The position numbers were made by a program, and so were the translations under genes. A DNA stretch of 64,000 nucleotides, taken from the NCBI RefSeq assembly GCF_964355755.1, contig NC_092674.1, positions 9,982,001 through 10,046,000 on the forward strand, read 5' to 3'. Every line of letters starts with the position of its first letter. Positions within the stretch are counted from its first letter, which is position 1. Source of the stretch: Antedon mediterranea (Eukaryota; Animalia; Echinodermata). Positions 11,161 to 55,369 of the stretch are shown here, in pieces. The notes under the pieces are model-generated. The model was not told the origin of the DNA and searched no databases. It saw only the letters and a program-made list of their open reading frames with translations.

Positions 11161-11235
11161 TTAAGGGCGTATTTAAAATTCCAGAGCAGTGACGGTTCAG
11201 ATGATATTAAAACCTTGAATTCCAGTATCTATGTT

Positions 11236-20800: not shown

Positions 20801-21513
20801 AAAAAAATAAAAAAGAATAGGAGAAATAAACCTTATGCATTGTACACTTCGCGCTAACCAACCAAAAAAAAAGCAATGGGTTAATCTTTGATTAAAACTG
20901 AGATAGATTGCATGCACTAGAATTTTCAAACCAACCAATCAGAACCCGGTTGACATCTTCTCTCTACTTGCAATGTATTTTGCTTTTCATTGTATAAGAA
21001 ATGTTGCACTCCTTTTTGTAACATTAAAGTTCTAATCCCCTTTCTTTTACATGTCAAAAACTTACCAATTGGTTTATCAAAGCGAATAAGCCGTAGGTAA
21101 GGCTGTGTTTTACTAGGCATCGCATCCACAATTGCACTTGAAGTTGTTTTAAAACTAATATTCCTCTCTTGTTGACAACTGTGAACTCCATAACTAAGCC
21201 TCTCTAATTGGTTCCTAAATATTAAAGTTCTGTTAAATTGACTGGAAAATTTGTTCAATTTAAAGTAATTTGAACAATTTTTTAAAAGATAATTGGAACT
21301 GCTTCTTTGTGAAAAAGTATGACAGCTTTGTTTTGTTGTGTGCGAGTAATTTAAACATTTTGTTGGAATGTCACAATCTTTCTTCTTCCTAGTGCTGATG
21401 ACATGTGTAGTAGTACTTCTTGTGTTTGAAATGACATCATTGATGATAGTGAGCAAGATACCTTGAGAACCTTTGTAGTATATCGGAGGGAATCGTTTAC
21501 AGAGTAAATTCAT
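17673..21513 (-). CDS. COQ2: 4-hydroxybenzoate polyprenyltransferase, mitochondrial (UbiA family), complete CDS in 7 exons
   Basis: Exons 21513-21066, 20602-20436, 19464-19343, 19212-19127, 19026-18893, 18768-18580 and 17819-17673 are all GT-AG and in phase. Motifs: [67 protein letters not shown]. Confidence 0.96.
18371..18449. repeat. 18-bp tandem repeat, about 4.3 copies
   Basis: (ACTCTGATGGATATAGAA)n. Confidence 0.9.
18580..18768 (-). CDS. COQ2: COQ2 coding exon 6
   Basis: [25 protein letters not shown]...HLSSQ. Confidence 0.93.
18893..19026 (-). CDS. COQ2: COQ2 coding exon 5
   Basis: [17 protein letters not shown]...[12 protein letters not shown]. Confidence 0.93.
19127..19212 (-). CDS. 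COQ2: COQ2 coding exon 4
   Basis: [28 protein letters not shown]. Confidence 0.93.
19343..19464 (-). CDS. COQ2: COQ2 coding exon 3
   Basis: [40 protein letters not shown]. Confidence 0.93.
19885..20290. mobile_element. Non-autonomous Kolobok-like DNA transposon (long-TIR MITE) in a COQ2 intron
   Basis: ~155-bp imperfect inverted repeats begin AGGACAACTTGACC and end GGTCAAGTTGTCCT, flanked by TTAA / TTAG. A TTAA target with purine-purine termini fits Kolobok. Confidence 0.75.
20436..20602 (-). CDS. COQ2: COQ2 coding exon 2
   Basis: [19 protein letters not shown]...[19 protein letters not shown]. Confidence 0.94.
21066..21513 (-). CDS. COQ2: COQ2 coding exon 1 (basic presequence-like region plus start of the catalytic domain)
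   Basis: ATG at 21513, ends [13 protein letters not shown]|gtaag. Confidence 0.88.
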
Positions 21514-21755
21514 CCTCGCAATCTGTTAAAAGTAAATAACATTGACGTTACTTTTTGGCTTTGTTGGTATACTGTACATGAAATTGGCAAATACACGTTT
21601 TCAAAATAAACTTAATCTGTCAAATTGTTTGTAGTAGTTTTGTAGTAGGCCTAGACATAATTATGTCTTGAGTTGAGGTGATTAAATTATTTTTTAAAAC
21701 CTTTCCAATATAGGCCTAGGCCCTATATTATTCTCTGCGTCTGGTCATGTTGATA

Positions 21756-22858
21756 GGGTGTCACGAAACCTAAGACCACGAAAACTAAGACCCCCTAAGA
21801 CCTAAGATCACGAAAGCTAAGACCCAAGAACTAAGATTACAAATATTTATCACCTGCCTTGTATTTTAACTCCCAACATTTATTCTGAACACCACACCTT
21901 AGAATTAGCACTTTTATGAAAAAGAATCAAATAAAAAGTAACAAATACATTCTTAAATTGATGATTTTACAGACGTTTTTCTCGCACACATACGCTACTG
22001 TTTGCGAATTTCGCATGACTAGCCTAACAGTAGGCCGACCCCATGTTCAATGCTTTTGTTTCTATGGAACGTCAAAAGAGCAAAAATTATATAGAGGGCT
22101 GAAAACTCTGTGGAGTCCATCTACAGTGTGGATAGAACAATGTAAAATTAAAATTGTAATGATAATAGTATAATCATGCTAGTACGAAGAAATAAATACT
22201 CGCAAATAAATTTTAATTTAAAAATCATGATAATAAGTTTTTTTTGTTTCGTTTTCTTTCTGTTTTTATACTTGTACTATTATTTTTGCTCTTTTGGCGC
22301 TCCATAGAAACAAAAACATTGAGCATGGGAGGAGTTACAGTATACAAAGAAACACGTCTGTAAAATCATCAATTCAGAGGATTTATTTATTTGTTTTTAT
22401 GTGTTTCTCCTTCTGAAAGTACTTATAAGTCCTAATTTTAAAGTGTGGTATTCAAGATAAAGTTAGTTAACAAATAGTCAAAATACAAGAAAGGCAGGTA
22501 CGGTGCAAAAGAAAAACATCCTCTGAACCAACACAATGGAGTAAATATATACCAACAAACAACCCGTCAAGTTTGTTTGTTGTAAAGAAAAAATATACAT
22601 TTACTCAACGGGCAAAAATAACGTGAGTTTATCTATGTTTTGCGGTAGTATTTAATTATATTTATGGTAATAAATGAAACCTACTATGTTTAAAATTATG
22701 TATGGATAAACAAGTATTGTTTTTAAGCTGTAGTATATCTTAGAATTTGTAATCTATAGTTCTTGCTTGGGTCTTAGCTTTCGTGATCTTAGGTCTTAGT
22801 TAGGGGGTCTTAGCTTTCGTGGTCTTCTAAGTCTTAGTATTAGGTTTTGTGACAACCC
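21756..22858. mobile_element. Foldback/Mutator-like non-autonomous element, 1.1 kb, 9-bp TSD
   Basis: TSD ATGTTGATA at 21747-21755 and 22859-22867. Outer TIRs of ~90-110 bp are built from CTAAGACC subrepeats. An inner inverted repeat spans ~21880-22090 / ~22260-22470. Confidence 0.9.
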
Positions 22859-23179
22859 ATGTTGATACCACACTACGATACCCAAGCACCACATTAAGGA
22901 ATAATAATAACCAAAGTGAGCGATCGAATGATAAACTAAACGGCCACAAGGGGTTTCGTACGAAACGACTCCGTAAAAAAAAACAGCCGTTCACTGGGCC
23001 CTACTTGGTGGACCGGCGTGAAGTTGGTTACTTATTCCTTATTCGATATTCAATTTTTTTTGTGAAGTTGGATCCTTATTCGACATTCACATTCACATGT
23101 ATGGGGCGCAATATGTGTAATATTTTAATTAAATGATTTTATACTTACGGCTTAGATTAACTAGGGCTATGATTTATAG

Positions 23180-26100
23180 TAGGGCTATAACTTCGTTATA
23201 AACGGCATGGACCGGTATGACGATACATGGGTTGGGGCGAGTAGGGTCCAGTCATTTCAGAAAAATACCTCTTACCCCGGTCCATGCCGTCTAGCTGTCA
23301 TTTTACGCCATTTTAAAACGTTACTACAATTTAAGGTTTTCATAAAAAATGCAAAGTAAACGTATGATGTATAGGGCTATAATTACGTTATAAACGGCAT
23401 GGACCGGGATGACGATACATTGGTTGGGGCTAGTAGGGTCCAGTAGTTTCAGAAAAATACCACTTGACCCGGTCCAGGCCGTCTAGCTGCCATTTCACGC
23501 CATTTTAAAACCTTACTACAATTTAACGTTTTTATAAAAAATGCAATATAACCGGATGAAATATAGGGCTATAATTACGTTATAAACGGCATGGACCGGG
23601 ATGACGATACATGGGTTGGGGCAAGTAGGGTCCAGTCAATTCAGAAAAATACCACTTGCCCCGGTCCATGCCGTCTAGCTATCATTTTACGCCATTTTAA
23701 ACGTTACTACAATTTAATTTTTTTTTTTTTATAAAAAATGCAATATAACCGGATGATATATAGGGCTATAATTACGTTATAAACGGCATGGACCGGGATG
23801 ACGATACATGGGTTGGGGCGAGTAGGGTCCAGTCATTTCAGAAAAATACCACTTGCCCCGGTTCATGCCGTCTAGCTGTCATTTTAAGCCATTTTAAAAC
23901 GTTACCGGTACTACAATTTAATTTTTTTAAATACAAAATGCAATATAACCGAATGATTTATAGGGGTATAATTACGTTATAAACGGCATGGACCGGGATG
24001 ACGATACATGGGTTGGGGCTAGTAGGGTCCAGTCGTTTCAGAAATATACCACTTGCCCCGGTCCATGCCGTCTAGCTGCCATTTCACGCCATTTTAAAAC
24101 CTTACTACAATTTAACGTTTTTATAAAAAATGCAATATAACCGGATGATATATAGGGCTATAATTACGTTATAAACGGCATGGACCGGGATGACGATACA
24201 TGGATTGGGGCGAGTAGGGTCCAGTCATTTCAGAAACATACCTCTTACCCCGGTCCATGCCGTCTAGCTGTCATTTTACGCCATTTTAAAACGTTACCGG
24301 TACTACAATTTAATTTTTTTAAATACAAAATGCAATATAACCGAATGATTTATAGGGGTATAATTACGTTATAAACGGCATGGACCGGCATGACGATACA
24401 TGGGTTGGGGCTAGTAGGGTCCAGTCGTTTCAGAAATATACCACTTGCCCCGGTCCATGCCGTCTAGCTGCCATTTCACGCCATTTTAAAACCTTACTAC
24501 AATTTAACGTTTTTATAAAAAATGCAATATAACCGGATGATATATAGGGCTATAATTACGTTATAAACGGCATGGACCGGGATGACGATACATGGATTGG
24601 GGCGAGTAGGGTCCAGTCATTTCAGAAACATACCTCTTACCCCGGTCCATGCCGTCTAGCTGTCATTTTACGCCATTTTAAAATGTTACTACAATTTAAG
24701 GTTTTCATAAAAAATGATATGTAAACGTATGATTTATAGGCCTATAATTACGTTATAAACGGCATGGACCGGGATGACGATACATGGGTTGGGGCAAGTA
24801 GGGTCCAGTCAATTCAGAAAAATACCACATGCCCCGGTCCATGCCGTCTAGCTATCATTTTACGCCATATTAAAACGTTACTACAATTTAACGTTTTTTT
24901 TTTTTTTTATAAAAAATGCAATATAACCGAATGATTTATAGGGCTATAATTACGTTATAAACGGCATGGACCGGGATGACGATACATGGGTTGGGGCTAG
25001 TAGGGTCCAGTCATTACAGAAAATTATCTCTTGCCCCGGTCCATGCCGTCTAGCTGCCATTTTACGCCATTTTAAAACGTTACTACAATTTACGGTTTTC
25101 TTTAATATAAAATGTAATATAACCGGATGATATATAGGGCTATAATTACGTTATAAACGGCATGGACCGGGATGACGATACATGGGTTGGGGCGAGTAGT
25201 GTCCAGTCATTTCAGAAAAATACCACTTGCCCCGGTCCATGCCGTCTAGCTGTCATTTTACGCCATTTTAAAACGTTACTACAATTTAAGGTTTTTATAA
25301 AAAATGCAATGTAAACGTATGATTTATAGGGCTATGATTACGTTATAAACGGCATGGACCGGGATGACGATACATGGGTTGGGGCTAGTCTGGTCCAGTT
25401 GTTTCAGAAAAATACCACTTGCCCCGGTCCATGCCGTCTAGCTGTCATTTTACGCCATTTTAAAACGTTACTAAAATTTACGTTTTTTTAAATAAAAAAA
25501 TCAATATAACCGGATGATATATAGGGCTATAATTACGTTATAAACGGCATGGACCGGGATGACGATACATGGGTTGGGGCGAGTAGGGTCAAGTAATTAC
25601 AGAAACATACTTCTTGCCCCGGTCCATGCCGTCTAGCAGCCATTTTACGCCATTTTAAAACGTTACTACAATTTACGGTTTTTTTTTATATAAAATGTAA
25701 TATAACCGGATGATATATACGTGATAATTACGTTATAAACGGCATGGACCGGGATGACGATACATGGGTTGGGGCGAGTAGGGTCATTTCAGAAAAATAC
25801 CACTTGCCCCGGTCCATGCCGTCTAGCTGTCATTTTACGCCATTTTAAAACGTTACTACAATTTAAGGTTTTTATAAAAAATGCAATGTAAACGTATGAT
25901 TTATAGGGCTATGATTACGTTATAAACGGCATGGACCGGGATGACGATACATGGGTTGGAGCTAGTCTGGTCCAGTTGTTTCAGAAAAATACCACTTGCT
26001 CCGGTCCATGCCGTCTAGCTGTCATTTTACGCCATTTTAAAACGTTACTAAAATTTACGTTTTTTTAAATAAAAAAATCAATATAACCGGATGATATATA

Positions 26101-29100
26101 GGGCTATAATTACGTTATAAACGGCATGGACCGGGATGACGATACATGGGTTGGGGCGAGTAGGGTCCAGTAATTACAGAAACATACTTCTTGCCCCGGT
26201 CCATGCCGTCTAGCAGCCATTTTACGCCATTTTAAAACGTTACTACAATTTACGGTTTTTTTTTATATAAAATGTAATATAACCGGATGATATATACGTG
26301 ATAATTACGTTATAAACGGCATGGACCGGGATGACGATACATGGGTTGGGGCGAGTAGGGTCATTTCAGAAAAATACCACTTGCCCCGGTCCATGCCGTC
26401 TAGCTGTCATTTTACGCCATTTTAAAACGTTACTACAATTTAAGGTTTTTATAAAAAATGCAATGTAAACGTATGATTTATAGGGCTATGATTACGTTAT
26501 AAACGGCATGGACCGGGATGACGATACATGGGTTGGGGCTAGTCTGGTCCAGTTGTTTCAGAAAAATACCACTTGCTCCGGTCCATGCCGTCTAGCTGTC
26601 ATTTTACGCCATTTTAAAACGTTACTAAAATTTACGTTTTTTTAAATAAAAAATTCAATATAACCGGATGATATATAGGGCTATAATTACGTTATAAACG
26701 GCATGGACCGGGATGACGATACATGGGTTGGGGCTAGTAGGGTCCAGTAGTTTCAGAAAAATACCACTTGACCCGGTCCAGGCCGTCTAGCTGCCATTTC
26801 ACGCCATTTTAAAACCTTACTACAATTTAACGTTTTTATAAAAAATGCAATATAACCGGATGAAATATAGGGCTATAATTACGTTATAAACGGCATGGAC
26901 CGGGATGACGATACATGGGTTGGGGCGAGTAGGGTCCAGTCATTTCAGAAAAATACCACTTGCCCCGGTTCATGCCGTCTAGCTGTCATTTTAAGCCATT
27001 TTAAAACGTTACCGGTACTACAATTTAATTTTTTTAAATACAAAATGCAATATAACCGAATGATTTATAGGGGTATAATTACGTTATAAACGGCATGGAC
27101 CGGGATGACGATACATGGGTTGGGGCTAGTAGGGTCCAGTCGTTTCAGAAATATACCACTTGCCCCGGTCCATGCCGTCTAGCTGCCATTTCACGCCATT
27201 TTAAAACCTTACTACAATTTAACGTTTTTATAAAAAATGCAATATAACCGGATGATATATAGGGCTATAATTACGTTATAAACGGCATGGACCGGGATGA
27301 CGATACATGGATTGGGGCGAGTAGGGTCCAGTCATTTCAGAAACATACCTCTTACCCCGGTCCATGCCGTCTAGCTGTCATTTTACGCCATTTTAAAATG
27401 TTACTACAATTTAAGGTTTTCATAAAAAATGATATGTAAACGTATGATTTATAGGGCTATAATTACGTTATAAACGGCATGGACCGGCATGACGATACAT
27501 GGGTTGGGGCAAGTAGGGTCCAGTCAATTCAGAAAAATACCACATGCCCCGGTCCATGCCGTCTAGCTATCATTTTACGCCATATTAAAACGTTACTACA
27601 ATTTAACGTTTTTTTTTTTTTTATAAAAAATGCAATATAACCGAATGATTTATAGGGCTATAATTACGTTATAAACGGCATGGACCGGGATGACGATACA
27701 TGGGTTGGGGCTAGTAGGGTCCAGTCATTACAGAAAATTATCTCTTGCCCCGGTCCATGCCGTCTAGCTGCCATTTTACGCCATTTTAAAACGTTACTAC
27801 AATTTACGGTTTTCTTTAATATAAAATGTAATATAACCGGATGATATATAGGGCTATAATTACGTTATAAACGGCATGGACCGGGATGACGATACATGGG
27901 TTGGGGCGAGTAGGGTCCAGTCATTTCAGAAAAATACCACTTGCCCCGGTCCATGCCGTCTAGCTGTCATTTTACGCCGTTTTAAAACGTTACTACAATT
28001 TAAGGTTTTTATAAAAAATGCAATGTAAACGTATGATTTATAGGGCTATGATTACGTTATAAACGGCATGGACCGGGATGACGATACATGGGTTGGGGCT
28101 AGTCTGGTCCAGTTGTTTCAGAAAAATACCACTTGCTCCGGTCCATGCCGTCTAGCTGTCATTTTACGCCATTTTAAAACGTTACTAAAATGTACGTTTT
28201 TTTAAATAAAAAATTCAATATAACCGGATGATATATAGGGCTATAATTACGTTATAAACGGCATGGACCGGGATGACGATACATGGGTTGGGGCGAGTAG
28301 GGTCCAGTCATTACAGAAACATACTTCTTGCCCCGGTCCATGCCGTCTAGCTGCCATTTTACGCCATTTTAAAACGTTACTACAATTTACGGTTTTTTTT
28401 TATATAAAATGTAATATAACCGGATGATATATAGGGCTATAATTACGTTATAAACGGCATGGACCGGGATGACGATACATGGATTGGGGCGAGTAGGGTC
28501 ATTTCAGAAAAATACCACTTGCCCCGGTCCATGCCGTCTAGCTGTCATTTTACGCCATTTTAAAACGTTACTACAATTTAAGGTTTTTATAAAAAATGCA
28601 ATGTAAACGTATGATTTATAGGGCTATGATTACGTTATAAACGGCATGGACCGGGATGACGATACATGGGTTGGGGCTAGTCTGGTCCAGTTGTTTCAGA
28701 AAAATACCACTTGCTCCGGTCCATGCCGTCTAGCTGTCATTTTACGCCATTTTAAAAGGTTACTACAATTTACGTTTTTTTAAATAAAAATATCAATATA
28801 ACCGGATGATATATAGGGCTATAATTACGTTATAAACGGCATGGACCGGGATGACGATACATGGGTTGGGGCGAGTAGGGTCCAGTCATTACAGAAACAT
28901 ACTTCTTGCCCCGGTCCATGCCGTCTAGCTGCCATTTTACGCCATTTTAAAACGTTACTACAATTTACGGTTTTTTTTTATATAAAATGTAATATAACCG
29001 GATGATATATAGGACTATAATTACGTTATAAACGGCATGGACCGGGATGACGATACATGGGTTGGGGCGAGTAGGGTCCAGTCATTTCAGAAAAATACCA

Positions 29101-32100
29101 CTTGCCCCGGTCCATGCCGTCTAGCTGTCATTTTACGCCATTTTAAAACGTTACTACAATTTAAGGTTTTCATAAAAAATGCAATGTAAACGTATGATTT
29201 ATAGGGCTATAATTACGTTATAAACGGCATGGACCGGGATAAAGATACATGGGTTGGGGCAAGTAGGGTCCAGTCAATTCAGAAAAATACCACTTGCCCC
29301 GGTCCATGCCGTCTAGCTATCATTTTACGCCATTTTAAAACGTTACTACAATTTAACGGGTTTTTTTTTTTTATAAAAAATGCAATATAACCGAATGATT
29401 TATAGGGCTATAATTACGTTATAAACGGCATGGACCGGGATGACGATACATGGGTTGGGGCTAGTATGGTCCAGTTGTTTCAGAAAAATACCACTTGCCC
29501 CGGTCCATGCCGTCTAGCTGTCATTTTACGCCATTTTAAAACGTTACTAAAATTTACGTTTTTTTAAATAAAAAATACAATATAACCGAATGATTTATAA
29601 GGCTAAAATTACGTTATAAACGGCATGGATCGGGATGACGATACATGGGTTGGGGCAAGTATGGTCCATTCGTTTCAGAAAAATACCACTTGCCCCAGTC
29701 CATGCCGTCTAGCTGTCATTTTACGCCATTTTAAAACGTTACTACAATTTAACGTTTTTAAAATAAAAAATGCAATATAAACGCATGATATAATAGGGCT
29801 ATAATTACGTTATAAACGGCATGGACCGGGATGACGATACATGGGTTGGGGCGAGTAGGGTCCAGTCATTTTAGAAAAATACGACTTGCCCCGGTCCATG
29901 CCGTCTAGCTGTCATTATACGACATTTTAAAACGTTACTACAATTTAAGTTTTTTTAAATAAAAAATGCAATGTAAACCTATGATTTATAGGGCTATAAT
30001 TACGTTATAAACGGCATGGACCGGGATGAAGATACATGGGTTGGGGCAAGTAGTGTCCAGTCAATTCAGAAAAATACCACTTGCCCCGGTCCATGCCGTC
30101 TAGCTGTCATTTTACGCCATTTTAAAACGTTACTACAATTTAGCGTTTTTAAAATAAAAAATGCAATATAAACGCATGATATAATAGGGCTATAATTACG
30201 TTATAAACGGCATGGACCGGGATGACGATACATGGGTTGGGGCGAGTAGGGTCCAGTCATTTCAGAAAAATATGACTTGCCCCGGTCCATGCCGTCTAGC
30301 TGTCATTTTACGACATTTTAAAACGTTACTACAATTTAAGTTTTTTTAAATAAAAAATGCAATATAACCGAATGATTTATAGGGATATAATTACGTTATA
30401 AACGGCATGGACCGGGATGACGATACATGGGTTGGGGCAAGTAGGGTCCAGTCATTTCAGAAAAATACCACTTGCCCCGGTCCATGCCGTATAGCTGTCA
30501 TTTTACGCCATTTTAAAACGTTACTACAATTTAAGGTTTTCATAAAAAATGCAATGTAAACGTATGATTTATAGGGCTATAATTACGTTATAAACGGCAT
30601 GGACCGGGATGAAGATACATGGGTTGGAGTAAGTAGTGTCCAGTCAATTCAGAAAAATACCACTTGCCCCGGTCCATGCCGTCTAGCAATCATTTTACGC
30701 CATTTTAAAACGGTACTACAATTTAACTTTTTTTTTGAATAAAAAATGCAATATAACCGAATGATTTATAGGGCTATAATTACGTTATAAACGGTATGGA
30801 CCGGGATGACGATACATGGGCTGGGGCCAGTATGGTCCAGTTGTTTCAGAAAAATACCACTTGCTCCGGTCCATGCCGTCTAGCTGTCATTTTACGCCAT
30901 TTTAAAACGTTACTAAAATTTACGTTTTTTTAAATAAAAAGTGCAATATAACCGAATGATTTTTAAGGCTATAATTACGTTATAAACGGCATGGACCGGG
31001 ATGACGATACATGGGTTGGGGCGAGTAGGGTCCAGTCATTTTAGAAAAATACCTCTTACCCCGGTCCATGCCATCTAGCTGTCATTTTACGCCATTTTAA
31101 AACGTTACTACAATTTAAGGTTTTCATAAAAATGCAATGTAAACGTATGATGTATAGGGCTATAATTACGTTATAAACGGCATGGACCGGGATGACGATA
31201 CATGGGTTGGGGCAAGTAGGGTCCAGTCAATTCAGAAAAATACCACTTGCCTCGGTCCATGCCGTCTAGCTATCATTTTACGCCATTTTAAACGTTACTA
31301 CAATTTAATTTTTTTTTTTTTTATAAAAAATGCAATATAACCGGATGATATATAGGGCTATAATTACGTTATAAACGGCATGGACCGGGATGACGATACA
31401 TGGGTTGGGGCGAGTACGGTCCAGTCATTTCAGAAAAATACCACTTGCCCCGGTTCATGCCGTCTAGCTGTCATTTTAAGCCATTTTAAAACGTTACCGG
31501 TACTACAATTTAATTTTTTTAAATACAAAATGCAATATAACCGAATGATTTATAGGGGTATAATTACGTTATAAACGGCATGGACCGGGATGACGATACA
31601 TGGGTTGGGGCTAGTAGGGTCCAGTCGTTTCAGAAATATACCACTTGCCCTGGTCCATGCCGTCTAGCTGCCATTTCACGCCATTTTAAAACCTTACTAC
31701 AATTTAACGTTTTTATAAAAAATGCAATATAACCGGATGATATATAGGGCTATAATTACGTTATAAACGGCATGGACCGGGATGACGATACATGGATTGG
31801 GGCGAGTAGGGTCCAGTCATTTCAGAAACATACCTCTTACCCCGGTCCATGCCGTCTAGCTGTCATTTTACGCCATTTTAAAATGTTACTACAATTTAAG
31901 GTTTTCATAAAAAATGCAATGTAAACGTATGATTTATAGGGCTATAATTACGTTATAAACGGCATGGACCGGGATGACGATACATGGGTTGGGGCAAGTA
32001 GGGTCCAGTCAATTCAGAAAAATACCACATGCCCCGGTCCATGCCGTCTAGCTGTCATTTTACGACATTTTAAAACGTTACTACAATTTAAGTTTTTTTA

Positions 32101-33186
32101 AATAAAAAATACAATATAACCGAATGATTTATAAGGCTAAAATTACGTTATAAACGGCATGGACCGGGATGACGATACATGGGTTGGGACGAGTAGCGTC
32201 CAGTCATTTCAGAGAAATACCACTTGCCCCGGTCTATGCCGTCTAGCTGTCATTTTACGCCATTTTAAAACGTTACTACAATTTAAGGTTTTCATAAAAA
32301 ATGCAATGTAAACGTATGATTTATAGGGCTATATTTACGTTATAAACGGCATGGACCGGGATGAAGATACATGGGTTGGGGCAAGTAGGGTCCAGTCAAT
32401 TCAGAAAAATACCACTTGCCCCGGTCCATGCCGTCTAGCTATCATTTTACGCCATTTTAAAACGTTACTAAAATTTACGTTTTTTTAAATAAAAAATGCA
32501 ATATAACCGAATGATTTATAAGGCTATAATTACGTTATAAACGGCATGGACCGAGATGACGATACATGGGTTGGGGCAAGTATGGTCCAGTCAATTCAGA
32601 AAAATACCACTTGCCCCGGTCCATGCCGTCTAGCTGTCATTTTACGCCATTATAAAACGTTACTACAATTTAACGTTTTTAAAATAAAAAATGCAATATA
32701 AACGCATGATATAATAGGGCTATAATTACGTTATAAACGGCATGGACCGGGATGACGAGACATGGGTTGGGGCTAGTAAGGTCCAGTCGTTTCAGTAAAA
32801 TACCACTTGACCCGGTTCATGCCGTCTAGCGGCCATTTCACGCCATTTTAAAACGTTACTACAATTTAACTTTTTTATAAAAAATGCAATATAACCGGAA
32901 GATATAATTATAGGGCTATAATTACGTTATAAACGGCATGGACCGGGATGACGATACATGGGTTGGTGCGAGTAGGGTCCAGTCATTATAGAAAAGTACC
33001 ACTTGCCCTGGTCTATGCCGTCTAGTTGTCATTTTACGCCATTTTAAAACGTTACTACAATGTAACGTTTTTAAAAATAAAAAATGCACTATAAACGTAT
33101 GGTTTATAGGGCTATAATTACGTTATAAACGGCATGGACCGGGATGACGATACATTGATTGGGGTAAGTAGGGTCCAGTCATTTCA
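23180..33186 (+). repeat. Satellite A, left arm, ~192-200-bp monomer, about 52 copies
   Basis: GGCATGGACCGG starts at 23204, 23396, 23588 and onward. Length varies in poly-T/poly-A tracts. Confidence 0.97.
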
Positions 33187-36100
33187 CCCACGTATCGTCT
33201 TCCCGGTCCATGCCGTTTATAACGTAATTATAGCCCTATAAATCATGTGTTTATATTCCATTTTTTAATTTAAAAAACGTTCAATTGTAGTAACGTTTTA
33301 AAATGGCGTAAAATGGCAGCTAGACGGTATGGACAGGGGCAAGTGGTCTTTTTCTATAATGACTGGACCCTACTCGCCCCAACCCATGTATCGTCATCCC
33401 GGTCCATGCCGTTTATAACGTAATTATAGCCCTATATATCATCCGTTTATATTGCATTTTTTATAAAAACGTTAAATTGTAGTAACGTTTTAAAATGTCG
33501 TAAAATCGCAGCTAGACGGCATGGACCGGGGCAAGTGGTATTTTTCTGAAACGACTGGACCCTACTAGCCCCAACCCATTTTTTGTCATCCCGGTCCATG
33601 CCGTTTATTACGTAATAATAGCCCTATAAATCATGTGTTTATATTCCATTTTTTAATTTAAAAAACGTTAAATTGTAGTAACGTTTTAAAATGGCGTAAT
33701 ATGAAAGCTAGACGGCATGGACCGGGGCAAGTGGTATTTTTCCGAAATGACTGGACACTACTCGCCCCAACCCATATATCGTCATCCCTGTCCATGCCGT
33801 TTATAACGTAATTATAGCCCTGTAAATCATATGTTTATATTGCATTTTTTAATTTAAAAATCGTTAAATTGTAGTAACGTTTTAAAATGGCGTAAAATGA
33901 CAGCTAGACGGCATGGACCGGGGCAAGTGGTATTTTTCTGAAATGACTGGACCCTGCTAGCCCCAACCCATGTATCGTCATCCCGGTCCATACCGTTTAT
34001 AACGTAATTATAGCCCTATATATCATCCGGTTATATTGCATTTTTTATAAAAAAAAAATTAAATTGTAGTAACGTTTAAAATGGCGTAAAATGACAGCTA
34101 GACGGCATGGACCGGGGTAAGAGGTATTTTTTTTAAATGACTGGACCCTACTCGTCCCAACCCATGTATCGTCATCCCGGTCCATGCCGTTTATAACGTA
34201 ATTATAGCCCTATATATCATCCGGTTATATTGCATTTTTTATAAAAACGTTAAATTGTAGTAAGGTTTTAAAATGGCGTGAAATGGCAAGTAGACAGCAT
34301 GGACCGGGTAAAGTGGTATTTTTCTGAAACTACTGGACCCTACTAGCCCCAACCCATGTATCGTCATCCCGGTCCATGCCGTTTATAACTTAATTATAGC
34401 CTTATAAATCATTCGGTTATATTGCATTTTTTATTTTTAAAAATTAAATTGTAGTACCGGTAACGTTTTAAAATGGCGTAAAATGACAGCTAGACAGCAT
34501 GGACCGGGAAAAGTGGTATTGTTATGCAATGACTGGACCCTACTCGACCCAACCCATGTATCGTCATCCCGGTCCATGCCGTTTATAACGTAATTATAGC
34601 CCTATATATCATCCTGTTATATTGCATTTTTTATTTTAAAAAACGTTAAATTGTAGTAACGTTTTAAAATGGCGTAAAATGACAGCTAGACGGCATGGAC
34701 CGGGACAAGTGGTATTTTTCTGAAACTACTGGACCCTACTAGCCCCAACCCATGTATTGTCATCCCGGTCCATGCCGTTTATAACGTAATTATAGCCCTA
34801 TAAATCATTCGGTTATATTGCATTTTTTATAAAAAAAACGTTAAATTTTAGTAACGTTTTATAATGGCGTTAAATGATAGCTAGACGGCATAGACCGGGG
34901 CAAGTGGTATTTTTCTGAAATGACTGGACCCTACTCGCCCCAACCCATGTATCGTCATCCCGGTCCATGCCGTTTATAACGTAATTATAGCCCTATATGT
35001 CATCCGGTTATATTCTATTTTTCATTTAAAAAAAACTTAAATTGTAGTAACGTTTTAAAATGGCGTAAAATGGCAGCTAGACAGCATGGACCGGGGCAAG
35101 TGGTATTTTTCTGAAACGACAGGAACCTACTAGCCCCAACCCATGTATCGTCATCCCGGTCCATGCCGTTTATAACGTAATTATAGCCCTCTATATCTTC
35201 CGGTTATATTGCATTTTTTTATAAAAAAAAAACTTAAATTGTAGTAACATTTTAAAATGGCGTAAAATGGCAGCTAGACGGTATGGACCAGGGCAAGTAG
35301 TACTTTTCTATAATGACTGGATGCTACTCGCACCAACCCATGTATCGTCATCCCGGTCCATGCCGTTTATAACGTAATTATAGCCCTATATATCATCCGG
35401 TTATATTGCATTTTTTATAAAAAAGTTAAATTGTAGTAACGTTTTAAAATGGCGTGAAATGGCCGCTAGACGGCATGGACCGGGTCAAGTGGTATTTTTC
35501 TGAAACGACTGGACCCTACTAGCTCCAACCCATGTATCGTCATCTCGGTCCATGCATGCCGTTTATAACGTAATTATAGACCTAAAAATCATTCAGTTAT
35601 ATTGCATTTTTTATATAAAAAAAAACGTTAAATTGTAGTAACGTTTTAAAATGGCGTAAAATGATAGCTAGACGGCATGGACCGGGGCAAGTGGTATTTT
35701 TCTGAATTGACTGGACCCTACTTGACCCAACCCATGTATCGTCATCCCGGTTCATGTCGTTTATAACGTAATCATAGACCTATAAATCATTCGGTTATAT
35801 TGCATTTTTTATAAAAAAAAAAACACGTTAAATTGTAGTAATGTTTTAAAATGGCGTAAAATGATAGCTAGACGGCATGGACCGGGGCAAGTGGTATTTT
35901 TCTGAATTGACTGGACCCTACTTGCCCCAAACCATGTATCGTCATCCCGGTCCATGCCGTTTATAACGTAATTATAGCCCTATAAATCATATGTTTACAT
36001 TGCATTTTTTATGAAAACCTTAAATTGTAGTAACGTTTTAAAATGGCGTAAAATGACAGCTAGACGGCATGGACCGGGGCAAGAGGTATTTTTCTTAAAT

Positions 36101-39100
36101 AACTGGACCCTACTTGCCCCAACCCACGTATCTTCATCCCGGTCCATGCCGTTTATAACGTAATTATAGCCCTATATTTCATCAGGTTCTATTGCATTTT
36201 TTATAAAAACGTTTAAATTGTAGTAAGGTTTTAAAATGGCGTGAAATGGCAGCTAGACGGCATGGACCGGGTCAAGTGGTATTTTTCTGAAACTACTGGA
36301 CCCTACTAGCCTCAACCCATGTATCGTCATCCCGGTCTATGCCGTTTATAACGTAATTATAGCCCTATAAATCATTCGGTTATATTGCATTTTGTATTTA
36401 AAAAAAAATTAAATTGTAGTACCGGTAACGTTTTGAAATGGCGTAAAATGGCAGCTAGACGGCATGGACCGGGGCAAGTGGTATTTTTCTGAAACGACAG
36501 GACCCTACTAGCCCCAACCCATGTATCGTCATCCCGGTCCATGCCGTTTATAACGTAATTATAGCCCTATAAATCATACGGTTATATTGCATTTTTTATA
36601 AAAAAAAAACTTAAATTGTGGTAACGTTTTAAAATGGCGTAAAATGGCAGCTAGACGGCATGGACAGGGACAAGTGGTATATTTCTGAAACGACTGGACC
36701 CTACTAGCCCCAATCCATGTATCGTTATCCCGGTCCATGCCGTTTATAACGTAATTATAGCCCTATAAATCATTCGGTTATATTGCAATTTTTATAAAAA
36801 AAGACGTTAAATTGTATTAATGTTTTAAAATTGCGTAAAATGATAGCTAGACGGCATGGACCGGGGCAAGTGGTATTTTTCTGAATAGACTGGACCCTAC
36901 TTGCCCCAACCCCGTGTATCGTCTTCCCGGTCCATGCTGTTTATAACGTAATTATAGCCCTATAAATCATACGTTTATATTGCATTTTTTATGAAAACCT
37001 TAAATTGTAGTCGCGTTTTAAAATGGCGTAAAATGACAGCTAGACAGCATGGACCGGGGCAAGTGGTATTTTTCGAAAATGACTAGACCCTACTCGTCCC
37101 AACCCATGCATCGTCATCCCGGTCCATGCCGTTTATAACGTAATTATAGCCCTATAAATCATACGTTTATAGTGCATTTTTTATTTTTAAAAACCTTAAA
37201 TTGTAGTAACCTTTTAAAATGGCGTAAAATGACAGCTAGACGGCATGGACCGGGGCAAGTGGTACTTTTCTATTATGACTGGACCCTACTAGCACCAACC
37301 CATGTATCGTCATCCCGGTCCATGCCGTTTATAACGTAATTATAGCCCTATATATCATCCGGTTATGTTGCATTTTTTATAAAAAAAGTTAAATTGTAGT
37401 AACGTTTTAAAATGGCGTGAAATGGCCGCTAGACGGCATGAACCGGGTCAAGTGGTTTTTTCTGAAACAACTGGACCCTACTAGCCTCAACCCATGTATC
37501 GTCATTCCGGTCCATGCCGTTTATAACGTAATTATAGCCCTATAAACCATTCGGTTATATTGCATTTTTTATTTAAAAAAACGTTAAATTGTAGTAACGT
37601 TTTAAAATGGCGTAAAATGATAGCTACACGGCATGGACCGGGGCAAGCGGTATTTTTCTGAATTGACTGGACCCTACTTGCCCCAACCCATGTATCGTCA
37701 TCCCGGTCCATGCCGTTTATAACGTAATTATAGCCCTATAAATCATATGTTTACATTGCATTTTTTATGAAAACCTTAAATTGTAGTAACGTTTTAAAAT
37801 GGCGTATAATGACAGTTAGACGGCATGGACCGGGGTAAGAGGTATTTTTCTTAAATGACTGGACCCTACTCGCCCCAACCCATGTATCGTCATCCCGGTC
37901 CATGCCGTTTATAACGTAATTATAGCCCTATATTTCATCAGGTTATATTGCATTTTTTATAAAAACGTTAAATTGTAGTAAGGTTTTAAAATGGCGTGAA
38001 ATGGCAGCTAGACGGCATGGACCGGGTCAAGTGGTATTTTTCTGAAACTACTGGACCCTACTAGCCCCAACCCATGTATCGTCATCCCGGTCCATGCCGT
38101 TTATAACGTAATTATAGCCCTATAAATCATTCGGTTATATTGCATTTTGTATTTAAAAAAATTAAATTGTAGTAACAGTAACGTTTTAAAATGGCTTAAA
38201 ATGACAGCTAGACGCATGGACCGGGGCAAGTGGTATTTTTCTTAAATGAATGGACCCTATTCGCCCCAACCCATGTATCGTTGTCCCGGTCCATGCCGTT
38301 TATAACGTAATTATAGCCCTATATATCATCTTGTTATATTGCATTTTTTATTTAAAAAAACGTTAAATTGTAGTAACGTTTTGAAATGGCGTAAAATGAT
38401 AGCTAGACGACATGGACCGGGGCAAGTGGTATTTCCTGAATTGACTGGACCCTACTTGCCCCAACCGATGTATCGTCATCCCGGTCCATGCCGTTTATAA
38501 CGTAATTATAGCCCTATAAACCATTCGGTTATATTGCATTTTTTATTTAAAAAAACGTTAAATTGTAGTAACGTTTTAAAATGGCGTAAAATGATAGCTA
38601 GACGGCATGGACCGGGGCAAGTGGTATTTTTCTGAATTGACTGGACCCTACTTGCCCCAACCCATGTATCGTCATCCCGGTCCATGCCGTTTATAACGTA
38701 ATTATAGCCCTATAAATCATATGTTTACATTGCATTTTTTATGAAAACCTTAAATTGTAGTAACGTTTTAAAATGGCGTATAATGACAGCTAGACGGCAT
38801 GGACCGGGGTAAGAGGTATTTTTCTTAAATGACTGGACCCTACTTGCCCCAACCCATGTATCGTCATCCCGGTCCATGCCGTTTATAACGTAATTATAGC
38901 CCTATATTTCATTAGGTTATATTGCATTTTTTTGATAAAAACGTTAAATTGTAGTAAGGTTTTAAAATGGCGTGAAATGGCAGCTAGACGGCATGGACCG
39001 GGTCAAGTGGTATTTTTCTGAAACTACTGGACCCTACTAGCCCCAACCCATGTATCGTCATCCCGGTCCATGCCGTTTATAACGTAATTATAGCCCTATA

Positions 39101-40862
39101 AATCATTTGGTTATATTGCATTTTGTATTTAAAAAAATTAAATTGTAGTAACAGTAACGTTTTAAAATGGCTTAAAATGACAGCTAGACGGCATGGACCG
39201 GGGCAAGTGGTATTTTTCTGAAATGAATGGACCCTACTCGCCCAACCCATGTATCGTTATCTCGGTCCATGCCGTTTATAACGTAATTATAGCCCTATAT
39301 ATCATCCTGTTATATTGCATTTTTTATTTAAAAAAACGTGAAATTGTAGTAACGTTTTGAAATGGCGTAAAATGATAGCTAGACGGCATGGACCGGGGCA
39401 AGTGGTATTTTTCTGAATTGACTGGACCCTACTTGCCCCAACCGATGTATTGTCATCCCGGTCCATGCCGTTTATAACGTAATTATAGCCCTATAAATCA
39501 TTCGGTTATATTGCATCTTTTATATAAAAAAAACGTTAAATTGTAGTAACGTTTTAAAATGGCGTAAAATGATAGCTAGACGGCATGGACCGGGGCAAGT
39601 GGTATTTTTCTGAATTGACTGGACCCTACTTGCCCCAACCCATGTATCGTCATCCCGGTCCATGCCGTTTATAACGTAATTATAGCCCTATACATCATAC
39701 GTTTACATTGCATTTTTTATGAAAACCTTAAATTGTAGTAACGTTTTAAAATGGCGTAAAATGACAGCTAGACGGCATGGACCGGGGTAAGAGGTATTTT
39801 TCTGAAATGACTGGACCCTACTCGCCCCAACCCATGTATCGTCATCCCGGTCCATGCCGTTTATAACGTAATTATAGCCCTATAAATCATACGTTTACAT
39901 TGCATTTTTTATGAAAACCTTAAATTGTAGTAACGTTTTAAAATGGCGTAAAATGACAGCTAGACGGCATGGACCGGGGTAAGAGGTATTTTTCTGAAAT
40001 AACTGGATCCTACTCGCCCCAACCCATGTATCGTCATCCCGGTCCATGCCGTTTATAACGTAATTATAGCCCTATATTTCATCCGGTTATATTGCAATTT
40101 TTATAAAAACGTGAAATTGTAGTAAGGTTTTAAAATGGCGTGAAATGGCAGCTAGACGGCATGGACCGGGGTAAGAGGTATTTTTCTGAAATAACTGGAC
40201 CCTACTAGCCCCAACCCATGTATCGTCATCCCGGTCCATGCCGTTTATAACGTATTTATAGCCCTATAAATCATTCGGTTACATTGCATTTTTTATTTTT
40301 AAAAATTAAATTGTAGGACCGGTAACGTTTTAAAATGGCGTAAAATGACAGCTAGACGGCATGGACCGGGGCAAGTGGTATTTTTCTAAAATGACTGGAC
40401 CCTACTCGCCCCAACCCATGTATCGTCATTCCGGTCCATGCCGTTTATAACGTAATTATACCCCTATATATCATCCTGTTATATTGAATTTTTTATTTAA
40501 AAAAACGTTAAATTGTAGTAACGTTTTAAAATGGCGTAAAATGACAGCTAGTAGACGGCATGGACCGAGGCAAGTGGTATTTTTCTGAAACGACAGGACC
40601 CTACTAGCCCCAACCCATGTATCGTCATACCGGTCCATGCCGTTTATCACGTAATTATAGCCCTATAAATCATCCGGTTATATTGCATTTTTTATTTTAA
40701 AAAACGTTAAATTGTAGTAAGGTTTTAAAATGGCGTAAAATGACAGCTAGACGGCATGGACCGGGGCAAGTGGTATTTTTCTGAAACGACTGGACCCTAC
40801 TAGCCCGAACCCATGTATCGTCATCCCGGTCCATGCCGTTTATAACGAAGTTATAGCCCTAT
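33187..40862 (-). repeat. Satellite A, right arm in reverse orientation, about 40 copies
   Basis: Reverse complement of the same monomer (...CCCAACCCATGTATCGTCATCCCGGTCCATGCCGTTTATAACGTAATTATAGCCC...). Confidence 0.97.
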
Positions 40863-41036
40863 AAATCATAGCCCTAGTTAATCTAAGCCGTAAGTATAAA
40901 ATCATTTAATTAAAATAGTACACATATTGCGCCCCATACATGTGAATGTGAATGTCGAATAAGGATCCAACTTCACAAAAAAAATTGAATATCGAATAAG
41001 GAATAAGTAACCAACTTCACGCCGGTACTTGGTGGC

Positions 41037-41149
41037 AGGCCTAGGCTGAGCTAGCTAGGCCTAGCTAGTTATGCCTTGCCTAGGCCTAGTAAAATAGTAC
41101 TAGGCCCCCTAGTAGGCTAGGCTAGCCTAGCTAGCTAGGAAGTCTAGCC
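41037..41149. repeat. TAGGCCTAG/CTAG-rich low-complexity tract
   Basis: Dense overlapping TAGGCCTA and CTAGCTAG motifs, resuming at 42065-42102 after the inserted element. Confidence 0.7.
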
Positions 41150-42064
41150 GGCGCTAGTTCCGTTTCGCACCTGTCGTTTATTTCGACTCAAAATTGGTTA
41201 AGTAACTTTATCGTGAGTACCACACCTTAGAATTAGGCCTCAAAAATACTTTTACGAAGGAGATCACACAAAAAGTAAAAAATAAATCCTTTAAATTGAT
41301 GAATTTACAGACGTGTTTCTCGCACATCGGTTTGTGAATTTCGCATACTCCATGTTCAATGTTGTTGTTTTTATGGAGCGCCAAAAGAGCAATCATAATA
41401 GAGGGCTAAAAACTCAGTAAATTGCGTATATTTATTGCATTTATTGGTGAAAATTACGTTCAATTTATCATATTTTGTCAATGTCAATGCAACAAAAATA
41501 TTACTGTTGATACTGTACATGGTTTTTGCAGGAACTTTTAGGAATGAAAATCGACAAATTCATCATCATATTACATGTACTGCTGTAGGGGTATACCTGA
41601 TAGTGATACTAATCTAAATAATATTCCTCTTAGTCTAGGCTATAGTCTTACTCTTAGTTAGGCCTAGGGTTGGTTGCTATTTGAAAACAGCAAATTATTA
41701 GCATTAAAATGTTACAGCATTTTTATTGACAAAATATATTATAATTAAACGTGTATTTCAATAATAAATGCATCAAGACGCATTCCACTGAGTTTTTAAC
41801 CATCTATTGTTGTTGCTCTTTTGGCGCTCCATAGAAACGAAAATATTGAACTTCGAGTGTTAGCTAAATTCGCGAACGGTATGCGAGAATCATGTCTGTA
41901 AAATCATCAATTTAAGGATTTATTTGTTACTTTTTATGTGATTCTTCTTCATAAAAGTACTCATGAGGCCCAATTTTAAGGTGTGGTATTCACAATAAGT
42001 TGCTTAACAATTTGGAGTCAAAAGGAAGTCGAAATAAAAACAGGTGCGAAACGGAACTAGCGCC
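41150..42064. mobile_element. Foldback-like non-autonomous element, 0.9 kb, 8-bp TSD
   Basis: TIR GGCGCTAGTTCCGTTTCGCACCTG / CAGGTGCGAAACGGAACTAGCGCC extends imperfectly for ~245 bp. TSD GTCTAGCC at 41142-41149 and 42065-42072. Confidence 0.9.
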
Positions 42065-42298
42065 GTCTAGCCTAGCCTCAAGTATCTAGCCTAGGCCTAG
42101 AGGTCTACCTCTGTTCAGCGTGTGTATTCCCTGCTGTCATTCATAAAATCTATAGAGCGTATACCGCTTGTGTCAAGCTAGCCGACAATAAGCCAGCCCA
42201 CTTTTATTTTTTCCAGCCGACAATAAGTATGAAACGCCGTTTGTGTATTTTTCACATTTTCAGTATTGCTTAAGGTTTTTATAGTATTAGAAATTCAA

Positions 42299-45200
42299 TA
42301 TTTGTGAGAAAATGGCGGATTGCTCCTGGGAGTCACTTGGTGGGATTATACTAGGGGACCTCCTTAATCGTCAAGTATAAGTTAGAGTAGAACCGCTGGT
42401 CCTGTTTACTCAGCCCTCATCTTTGAAATTTGAGTGTAACTCAATTTCGATTTTTAATATTATAGTGAAATTTGATACTGTATTTGTGAGAAAATGGCGG
42501 ATTGCTCCTGGGAGTCACTTTGTGGGATTATACTAGGGTACCTCCTTAGTCGTCCAGTATAAGTTAGGGTGGGACCACTGGTCCCGTTTACTCAGCCCTC
42601 ATCTTTTAAATCTGAGTGTAACTCAATTACGATTTTTAATATTATAGTGAAATTTGATACTGTATTTGTGAGAAAATGGCGGATTGCTCCTGGGAGTCAC
42701 TTGGTGGAATTATACTTGGGTACCTCCTTAGTCGTCCAGTATAAGTTAGAGTAGGACCGCTGGTCCTGTTTACTCAGCCCTCATCTTTTAAATCTGAGTG
42801 TAACTCAATTACGATTTTTAATATTATAGTGAAATTTGATACTGTATTTGTGAGAAAATGGCGGATTGCTCCAGGGAGTCACTTGGTGGGATTATACTAA
42901 GGTACCTCTTTGGTCGTCCAGTATAAGTTAGAGTAGGACCGCTGGTCTTGTTTACTCAGCCCTCATCTTTTAAATCTGAGTGTAACTCAATTACGATTTT
43001 TAATATTATAGTAAAATTTGATACTGTATTTGTGAGAAAATGGCGGATTGCTCCTGTGAGTCACTTGGTTGGATTATACTATAGGGTACCTCCTTAGTCG
43101 TCCAGTATAAGTTAGAGTAGGACCGCTGGTCCTGTTTACTCAGCCCTCATCTTTTTTAATCTGAGTGTAACTCAATTACGATTTTAAATATTATAGTGAA
43201 ATTTGGTACTGTATTTGTGAGAAAACGGCGGATTGCTCCTGGGAGTCACTTGGTGGGATTATACTAGGGGACCTCCTTAATCGTCAAGTATAAGTTAGAG
43301 TAGAACCGCTGGTCCTGTTTACTCAGCCCTCATCTTTGAAATTTGAGTGTAACTCAATTTCGATTTTTAATATTATAGTGAAATTTGATACTGTATTTGT
43401 GAGAAAATGGCGGATTGCTCCTGGGAGTCACTTTGTGGGATTATACTAGGGTACCTCCTTAGTCGTCCAGTATAAGTTAGGGTGGGACCACTGGTCCCGT
43501 TTACTCAGCCCTCATCTTTTAAATCTGAGTGTAACTCAATTACGATTTTTAATATTATAGTGAAATTTGATACTGTATTTGTGAGAAAATGGCGGATTGC
43601 TCCTGGGAGTCACTTGGTGGAATTATACTTGGGTACCTCCTTAGTCGTCCAGTATAAGTTAGAGTAGGACCGCTGGTCCTGTTTACTCAGCCCTCATCTT
43701 TTAAATCTGAGTGTAACTCAATTACGATTTTTAATATTATAGTGAAATTTGATACTGTATTTGTGAGAAAATGGCGGATTGCTCCAGGGAGTCACTTGGT
43801 GGGATTATACTAAGGTACCTCTTTGGTCGTCCAGTATAAGTTAGAGTAGGACCGCTGGTCTTGTTTACTCAGCCCTCATCTTTTAAATCTGAGTGTAACT
43901 CAATTACGATTTTTAATATTATAGTAAAATTTGATACTGTATTTGTGAGAAAATGGCGGATTGCTCCTGTGAGTCACTTGGTTGGATTATACTATAGGGT
44001 ACCTCCTTAGTCGTCCAGTATAAGTTAGAGTAGGACCGCTGGTCCTGTTTACTCAGCCCTCATCTTTTTTAATCTGAGTGTAACTCAATTACGATTTTAA
44101 ATATTATAGTGAAATTTGGTACTGTATTTGTGAGAAAACGGCGGATTGCTCCTGGAAGTCACTCGGTGGGATTATACTAGGGTACCTCCTTAGTCGTCCA
44201 GTATAAGTTAGAGTAGGACCGCAGGTCTTGTTTACTCAGCCCTCATCTTTTAAATCTGAGTGTAACTCAATTACGACTTTTTAATATTATAGTGAAATTT
44301 GATACTGTATTTGTGAGAAAATGGCGGATTGCTCCTGGGAGTCACTTGGTGGGATTATACTAGGGTACCTCCTTAGTCGACCAGTATAAGATAGGGTGGG
44401 ACCACTGGTCCCGTTTACTCAGCCCTCATCTTTTAAATCTGAGTGTAACTCAATTACGATTTTTAATATTATAGTGAAATTTGATACTGTATTTGTGAGA
44501 AAATGGCGGATTGCTTCTGGGGGTCACTTGGTGGGATTATACTAGGGTACCTCCTTAGTCATCCAGTATAAGTTAGAGTAGGACCACTGGTCCTGTTTAC
44601 TCAGCCCTCATCTTTTAAATCTGAGTGTAACTCAATTACGATTTTAAATATTATAGTGAAATTTGGTACTGTATTTGTGAGAAAACGGCGGATTGCTCCT
44701 GGAAGTCACTCGGTGGGATTATACTAGGGTACCTTCTTAGTCGTCCAGTATAAGTTAGAGTAGGACCGCTGGTCTTGTTTACTCAGCCCTCATCTTTGAA
44801 ATCTGAGTGTAACTCAATTACGATTTTTAATATTATAGTGAAATTTGGTACTGTATTTGTGAGAAAACGGCGGATTGCTCCTGGAAGTCACTCGGTGGGA
44901 TTATACTAGGGTACCTCCTTAGTTGTCTAGTATAAGTTAGAGTAGGACCACTGGTCCTGTTTACTCAGCCCTCATCTTTTAAATCTGAGTGTAACTCAAT
45001 TACGATCTTTAATATTATAGTGAAATTTGATACTGTATTTGTTAGAAAATGGTGGATTGCTCCCAGGAGTCACTTGGTGGGATTATACTAGGGGACCTCC
45101 TTAATCATCCAGTGTAAGTTAGAGTATGACCGCTGGTCCCGTTTACTCAGCCCTCATCTTTTAAATCTGAGTGTAACTCAATTACGATTTTTTATATAGT

Positions 45201-54200: not shown

Positions 54201-54415
54201 GTAGTCGTCCAGTATAAGTTAGGGTGGGACCACTGGTCCCGTTTACTCAGCCCTCATCTTTTAAATCTGAGTGTAACTCAATTACGATTTTTTATATAGT
54301 GAAATTTGAAACTGTATTTGTGAGAAAATGGCGAATTGCTCCTGGGAGTCACTTGGTGGGATTATACTAGGGTACCTCCTTAGTCGTCCAGTATAAGTTA
54401 GAGTAGGACCACTGG
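42299..54415 (+). repeat. Satellite B, ~180-184-bp monomer, about 66 copies
   Basis: TTTGTGAGAAAATGGCGGATTGCTCC at 42301, 42483 and onward. No visible similarity to satellite A beyond a short motif. Confidence 0.97.
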
Positions 54416-54677
54416 ACAACTAAGGAGGTACCCTAGTATAATCCCACCGAGAGTGACTTCCAGGAGCAATCCGCCGTTTTCTCACAAATACAGTACCAAA
54501 TTTCACTATAATATTTAAAATCGTAATTGAGTTACACTCAGATTTAAAAAGATGAGGGCTGCTGAGTAAACAGGACCAGCGGTCCTACTCTAACTTATAC
54601 TGGACGACTAAGGAGGTACCCTAGTATAATCCCACCAAGTGACTCCCAGGAGCAATCCGCCATTTTCTCACAAATAT
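54411..54677 (-). repeat. Satellite B, inverted arm, about 1.4 monomers
   Basis: Reverse-complement monomer runs directly into the right outer TIR. Confidence 0.92.
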
Positions 54678-55369
54678 TGAATTTCTAATACTATAAAAAC
54701 CTTAAGTAATACTGAAAATGTGAAAAATACACAAACGGCGTTTCATAGTTATTGTCGGCTGGAAAAAATAAAAGTGGGCTGGCTTATTGTCGGCTGGCTT
54801 ATTGTCGGCTAGCTTGACACAAGCGCGTATACTCATGTTTTTTCGTTCAGAAGGAAGGAAGGAAGCATGCAGCAGCTCCATATATGGTTTTATTTGAATA
54901 CTGCCATCTATAGTTTCTCAGAGTGGTTTGCTTGCATCATCAGTGGGTGGAGAGGAGGTGGTAGGTGGTACTGGTGGTTATTTAAGGGGCGCATTTGATA
55001 ATCGTGCCAAAACTAGCTGTGATATTATAAAAAAAGATATGTTTTTCGATCTCTACTTAATTAAATACATTATTAACAATTGTAGGGGTTTACCGTCGAA
55101 AATTGATGGGACCATAATGTTCACTGCATCATCTCAATCATCATAGATATACAAATTACTCATTATCATGATCACTATCCTCATCACCAAATTATTTGGG
55201 GAACAATGATTATTGAGTAACTTGTATACCTCCACGATCTAGTTTTAATAATTACCTTTTTAGGCCTAACCACATCACAAAAACTGAATCAGCTTGACTG
55301 GAATCTTGTTTATTCGTTCATCGTATGTGTAATCGTAATTCCATCAAATGAAATGTGTATGGCATAGTG

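Follow-up and report, generated by a model that had tools for sequence, protein, structure and literature searches.

An 18-kb block of satellite DNA in the crinoid Antedon mediterranea, here called element A, is read as a young foldback DNA transposon that has no gene of its own and was mobilised by a transposase from elsewhere, probably a Mutator/Rehavkus-type enzyme; most of the satellite would already have been part of the element when it arrived. We give this reading a probability of about 0.7. It builds on direct observations of the ends, the target-site duplication, the inward-running arrays, the lack of a gene, a uniform outer arm present in many copies, a branch point of the contigs and a unit diversity that exceeds the divergence of the ends.

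Structure of element A and its surroundings

Element A extends from position 23012 to 41026 (18,015 bp) of the window, the 64,000-nucleotide stretch of DNA that was analysed, and 98% of it is satellite. Both ends are directly abutted by ACTTGGTGG, on the left at 23003–23011 and on the right at 41027–41035 (both plus strand), which is an exact 9-bp direct repeat and was taken as the target-site duplication. From the base composition, the chance that two fixed positions match over 9 bases is about 7e-6. The 9-mer has 31 further forward matches and one reverse match in the neighbouring 182-bp satellite; these are a coincidence and leave the two copies flanking element A unaffected. The outer arms, which are the non-satellite part of the inverted repeat, lie at 23012–23187 (plus strand) and at 40854–41026 (minus strand). 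When they were compared as an inverted repeat, 164 of the first 165 bases were identical, and the left arm carries a 3-base insertion directly after these 165 bases. In the whole window, the boundary variant CTTCGTTATA is present at exactly two places, in the outermost unit of each arm (23191 forward, 40841 reverse). An earlier note on this DNA had claimed a perfect 9-bp duplication at both ends, inverted ends of about 165 bp with one substitution and a 3-bp insertion, and a monomer boundary variant in both outermost units, all of which was confirmed here.

Inside the left outer arm, a 10-mer (23018 and 23062) and a 9-mer (23038 and 23075) form short direct repeats. Each of them occurs only 2 + 2 times and is absent from the satellite units, and they are candidate binding sites of a transposase. 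A copy of the element tip within the satellite unit was also considered and was unsupported, the best match being 11/20.

Behind the outer arms, TRF and the parsing of units showed two arrays that run inwards. The left array (23188–33185, plus strand) consists of 51 full units and one 71-bp partial unit in forward orientation, the right array (33186–40853, minus strand) of 39 full units and one 45-bp partial unit in reverse orientation; the TRF copy numbers were 51.4 and 39.3. The full units measure 187–202 bp, typically about 195 bp, and contain an internal inverted repeat of about 15 bp. Folding of a single unit did not go beyond that of shuffled sequences, neither for the unit of element A (z -1.5) nor for that of the neighbouring element B (z -0.5). 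At the central junction (33185/33186) the window sequence has two truncated units in opposite orientation that share one base, without a spacer between them. The inner and middle domains, as they are drawn for the foldback element Tetris, are absent and the arrays abut, from which element A would be a deletion derivative. The longest stop-free frame has 72 aa and lies within the repeat, and no gene or transposase was found in the element. The earlier count of about 52 forward and 40 reverse monomers without a transposase or a middle domain agrees with these data.

To the left of element A lies a COQ2/UbiA-type gene on the minus strand, in which two downstream frames, read as exons, have Pfam UbiA matches below the curated cut-off. 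From a COQ2 motif we take 20929–21525 (minus strand) to be the probable first coding exon of this COQ2-like (UbiA prenyltransferase) gene. The first Met, at 21513, is probably the start codon and would place the start of the gene 1,499 bp away from element A, in line with the earlier description of an element beside a gene. Two older inverted-repeat elements of about 1 kb, which belong to one family, are found one on each side of element A. The window also encodes a NACHT-LRR protein, for which the best 21 of 32 matches were from the feather stars Antedon mediterranea and Anneissia japonica with 38–54% identity, in keeping with a crinoid host. A protein search with an SH3-gene exon gave no match.

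Element B, which the earlier note did not mention, was delimited by sequence and TRF at 42165–54825. It is 12.7 kb long, is located 1.1 kb from element A and has the same build. Its outer arms (42165–42299 and 54676–54825) are identical at 133 of 135 aligned bases, with an additional 15-bp duplication on the right. The arrays are made of the 182-bp satellite (42300–54415), with 66 full forward units and about 1.4 reverse units, and meet at a 5-base microhomology at 54411–54415. The flanking duplication is 7 bp when exact (42158–42164 and 54826–54832), or 8/9 when read at 9 bp. Elements A and B are alike in that short repeated motifs occur only in the outer arm, that the arrays run inwards and that the centre is free of a spacer. 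No sequence link was detected among element A, element B and the neighbouring inverted-repeat elements of about 1 kb (best BLAST E 0.2). The simplest common origin of both designs is that the middle of a longer element was deleted.

Contig evidence at the left junction

Ten public runs contain part of the stretch, and four of them (X2, X4, X7 and X8) were compared over 22400–23300, which covers the left junction. X7 and X8 come from the same sample, from which the window itself may have been derived, and are not independent. In X7, a flank contig of 241 nt with a depth of 287.5 showed no differences and stopped at 23011, where the duplication ends. In X8, a contig of 380 nt (depth 38.5) matched 22770–23011 without differences and then ran on into 138 letters that disagree with the sequence of the stretch, such that the flank contigs of both runs diverge exactly at 23011. 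The X8 continuation is what an allele lacking element A would be expected to show, and it is likely such an empty allele; alternatively, it may come from a second locus that shares the same flank. In the animal that was sequenced, element A is likely missing from the other haplotype, and this haplotype could carry either the pre-insertion site or the product of a precise excision, since more than 90% of the excisions of the foldback Muta1 in yeast were precise and left one copy of the duplication (PMC5499845).

The outer arm was recovered as one unbranched 171-nt contig with a depth of 7582 in X7 and of 833 in X8, which is 26 and 22 times the depth of the flank, respectively. Contig depth is a crude measure of copy number, and if the flank depth represents both haplotypes, this corresponds very roughly to two dozen elements per diploid genome. 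The summed depth of the unit contigs was left out of the estimate because overlapping short contigs inflate it. In X7, the outer-arm contig continues into the first unit and does not have the 3-base insertion. The first 40 bases or so of the element showed a depth about five times above that of the rest of the outer arm, and contigs left the element sequence at 23051, four in X7 and three in X8. The extra depth and the branching suggest that sister families likely share the tip, and the partner transposase may be among them.

In X2, which has a different organism label, a contig matched 23012–23047 with one difference and carried 204 other letters outside. This independently fixes the boundary of the element, and the tip recurs there beside another flank. 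The satellite unit had a depth of 134 in X2, compared with 2–7 for the other listed pieces of this run. X4 covered only the flanking repeat and none of element A, and exact scans of metagenome contigs with the 22-base tip and with a 30-base motif of the unit found 0 loci each. The multi-copy and nearly uniform outer arm, the branch at the duplication and the tip found elsewhere in X2 support the view of the earlier note that the element is a young, non-autonomous foldback.

A plain satellite with a switch of orientation would have neither arms nor a duplication, whereas element A has both. The inversion could also be an artefact of the assembly, or it could be a fold-back duplication in an ordinary satellite that is flanked by the 9-mer by chance. 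Assemblers have difficulty with long inverted arrays, the contig data are from the left junction, and spacer-free orientation switches are common in the centromere satellites of Tribolium (PMC12581902). However, the two arms are not mirror copies of each other. Mirrored units were 8.7% apart when paired from either end, as compared to 8.7% with random pairing (p ~0.57), and the longest exact match between the arms was 140 bp. Short runs of variant order are shared, with four units at ≤5%. That the arms are not mirrored argues against a fold-back chimera and against a single palindromic duplication. Together with the non-satellite outer arms, the exact duplication with its low chance of about 7e-6, the branch at its last base in two runs, the tip in another organism and the same build of element B, this makes an artefact highly improbable.

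Diversity and age of the satellite units

The unit types were clustered by single linkage from the 90 full units, with the 2 partial units dropped, whereas the partial units were included for the mean distances. The units differ on average by 8.0% within the left arm, by 8.9% within the right arm and by 8.6% between the arms. The full units fall into 63 groups at 1.1% and into 41 groups at 3.1%, which would amount to some 12 kb and 8 kb of sequence. The 39 units of the right arm gave 36 groups at 1.1%, 23 of the 39 were more than 3% away from every other unit and the median distance to the nearest unit was 4.1%. The two ends of element A differ by only 0.6%, and the flank contig had 0/241 differences (upper bound of about 1.2% by the rule of three). 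Since the diversity of the units is far above the divergence of the ends and the flank, most of it is likely older than the insertion, and the greater part of the array probably arrived with the element.

In the left arm, 34 of the 51 units have a twin within 1.1%, arranged in blocks of three to six units, and block duplications were seen between units 7–12 and 21–26 (0–1.5%) and between units 11–15 and 14–18. Later growth could account for about 27 units of the left arm, or about 5 kb, and recombination with other arrays could also have brought in units once the element had inserted. According to the model developed for Tetris, a small foldback would have inserted first and its arrays would then have grown in place or taken in units by recombination. 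The recent block duplications of the left arm and its three-unit repeats are in favour of this, as are the unequal lengths of the arms in element A (52 versus 40) and in element B (66 versus 1.4). In addition, allelic copies of Tetris are one repeat apart, and large arrays were suggested to disrupt transposition (PMC4079207). Growth from a few units, however, predicts units that are nearly identical, whereas the observed mean pairwise distance is 8–9%, and the 36 types among the 39 right-arm units stand against ends with a single difference in 165 bases and a flank with none. Growth in place is therefore an unlikely origin of the array. The earlier note had left it at an element that either moves as a satellite cassette or grows in place; the unit diversity favours movement together with the array, and part of the left arm is possibly later growth. 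No other full-length copy was seen, and mobility at full size is thus based on one locus.

Proposed mechanism, comparable elements and significance

The ancestor of element A would have consisted of an outer arm, a repeat array, a middle with the transposase, a second array and a second outer arm. The middle would have been lost through a deletion that joined two truncated units, and unequal exchange and the duplication of blocks would have made the arrays longer over an extended period and in many copies. A transposase from elsewhere would bind the tip of about 40 bp as well as the short direct repeats within the outer arm, and would pair the ends. The whole unit would then be cut and pasted with a 9-base stagger, leaving the 9-base duplication, and the arrays would be passengers whose length drifts through unequal exchange.

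Element A has the long inverted termini, the tandem units behind a non-satellite outer arm and the duplication within 8–10 bp that characterise foldbacks. Ends of more than 100 bp and a duplication within 8–11 bp correspond to the Mutator/MULE type, and the 9-bp duplication with subterminal tandem repeats corresponds to Rehavkus; membership in Mutator would be a purely structural assignment. The target-site duplication of the P superfamily is 7–8 bp long, with 7 bp for Galileo. The 9 bp of element A lie outside this range, while element B can be read with 7 or 9 bp. The exact 7-bp duplication of element B has the length of Galileo, and element A provides a single duplication, so the mover could also be a non-Mutator enzyme such as a P/Galileo, Merlin or hAT transposase. 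Foldback structures arise in more than one superfamily (PMC4079207, PMC5499845). The exact 9 bp of element A, however, is the Rehavkus value and falls within the 8–10 or 8–11 bp given for MULEs (PMC5499845, PMC6446971), and the duplication of element B can also be taken as a 9-bp repeat with a single mismatch. We regard a non-Mutator mover as quite improbable and keep to a transposase that is probably of the Mutator/Rehavkus type.

In the FB element of Drosophila melanogaster and the TU element of the sea urchin, the inverted arms are long and modular and contain tandem repeats whose number varies. These elements are a few kb long with repeats of tens of bases, and TU is an echinoderm precedent. 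Going by their description, element A resembles them in its modular inverted arms with variable tandem repeats.

Rehavkus elements have 9-bp duplications and encode a PHD-finger transposase, and the hosts listed in the available part of the source are arthropods and annelids (PMC6446971). Rehavkus-1_TC is 9.5 kb long with 164-bp units (PMC10218199). Rehavkus-3_TC of Tribolium castaneum has up to 50 repeats in its inverted termini, an ortholog has a 167-bp unit and a related repeat forms arrays of up to 80.5 kb (PMC12581902). Like these, element A has a terminal inverted repeat that is followed at both termini by a variable number of subterminal repeats of satellite length (164–167 bp in Rehavkus), and a 9-bp duplication. 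The Rehavkus copies differ in that they retain the central part, whereas the arrays of element A meet directly. Their listed hosts are also not echinoderms, and the likeness is one of structural description. The size that the earlier note had considered far beyond known foldbacks is real (18,015 bp), but it is less exceptional in view of the up to 50 repeats of Rehavkus-3_TC (PMC12581902).

Tetris of D. virilis is non-autonomous, has 8–10-bp duplications and tandem repeats of about 220 bp (TIR-220), and no transposase was found for it (PMC4079207). In complete copies the arms reach at most 1,735 bp, and inner and middle domains are present. The long arrays have up to 66 units, are homogeneous (~94%) and are thought to be past transposition, and long TIR-220 arrays between two outer domains were seen on DNA fibres (PMC4079207). 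The order of the domains, with an outer domain followed by tandem repeats in each arm, is the same as in element A, and the duplication of 8–10 bp fits too. In contrast to Tetris, the arms of element A are 8–10 kb each, both its ends and its duplication are preserved intact, and it seems to have inserted recently.

Long ends and 8–10-bp duplications are features of MULEs (PMC5499845). Muta1 of Aedes aegypti is an autonomous Mutator-type foldback of 3.2 kb with 8–9-bp duplications, and its 145-bp ends contain 12-bp repeats that are bound by the transposase (PMC5499845). Element A is similar to Muta1 in having a terminal motif and repeated subterminal motifs. A transposase-binding role is known for the 12-bp repeats of Muta1 but not for the 195-bp unit. 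Since the short repeats of the outer arm are absent from the units, the finding for Muta1 that excision benefits from additional subterminal repeats does not necessarily extend to element A. The centromeric macro-dyads of Tribolium freemani likewise consist of two inverted subarrays of different length, in which truncated units abut directly at the junction; they differ in being centromeric, and terminal arms or duplications are not reported in the available part of the source (PMC12581902). An intact satellite-only foldback of this size is not described in the available parts of two reviews (PMC12628747, PMC6431247), and no crinoid case was found in the literature searched, which excludes subscription journals and Repbase Reports. 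Judged by its structure, element A behaves like a Tetris/Rehavkus foldback and would fit into Mutator or Rehavkus.

The architecture has already been published and is no new class. What is new is the satellite-only body together with the signs of recent insertion at such a size. How kilobase-long satellite arrays reach new places is an open question, and element A suggests one route. The authors of the Tetris study proposed that foldbacks seed satellites and that long arrays may stop movement (PMC4079207); element A points in the opposite direction. An intact 18-kb element with diverse units, seemingly absent from the other haplotype, argues against long arrays blocking movement. A single jump could bring at least 8–12 kb of satellite to a place 1.5 kb from a gene start. 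The succession of unit variants serves as a barcode by which transport and local growth can be distinguished across the copies of a long-read assembly.

Element A is intact and probably polymorphic, with an independent twin design adjacent to it, and two unrelated families side by side suggest that the design is common in this genome. We propose tentatively, at somewhat less than even odds, that several unrelated and currently active families of satellite-only foldbacks jump as 10–20-kb units in this crinoid genome. Most copies of such satellites would then reside inside intact transposons, would be spread by them and would still be presence/absence alleles beside genes, and the satellite would be the element itself and not its decayed remnant.

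Genes and tandem arrays near element A

A NACHT-LRR (NLR) gene of 1,297 aa in a single frame is located on the minus strand at 58551-62444, and its LRRs are encoded by 12 tandemly arranged copies of a 171-bp unit. In the protein search its nearest relatives were crinoid NLRs, which made up the best 21 of 32 matches. The exons of a multi-SH3 gene with one SH3 Pfam match, probably SH3RF/POSH-like, were found on the plus strand at 5473-11228. Further tandem arrays have degenerate 43/87-bp units (55412-56425) and a 72-bp unit with 7 copies at 99% (56785-57293).

Elements flanking element A

Element A, the putative satellite-filled foldback transposon at 23012-41026, has an inverted-repeat element of ~1 kb on each side (21755-22860 on the left, 41040-42110 on the right); these two are 70-79% alike and belong to a single family. 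The left one had a very high contig depth in the public sequencing runs X7 and X8, which points to a very abundant, MITE-like family.

A second satellite-filled foldback, element B, was observed at 42165-54825, 1.1 kb from element A and unrelated to it in sequence. Its 182-bp units (66 forward and about 1.4 reverse) have a higher-order period of 19 units. The TSD can be read as 7 or 9 bp, and the centre has a 5-base microhomology.

Units, outer arm and tip of element A

Each ~195-bp unit (23188-40853) contains a ~15-bp internal inverted repeat with a ~58-bp spacer, and the folding of the whole unit showed no excess over shuffled sequences. One outer-arm variant in X8 (depth 27.1) lacked 41 bases at 23056-23098, approximately one internal sub-repeat of the arm. 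In the run contigs, the ~40 bases of the tip (23012-23051) also occurred in elements of higher abundance, whose sequences depart from that of element A at 23051. These are candidates for sister families or an autonomous partner.
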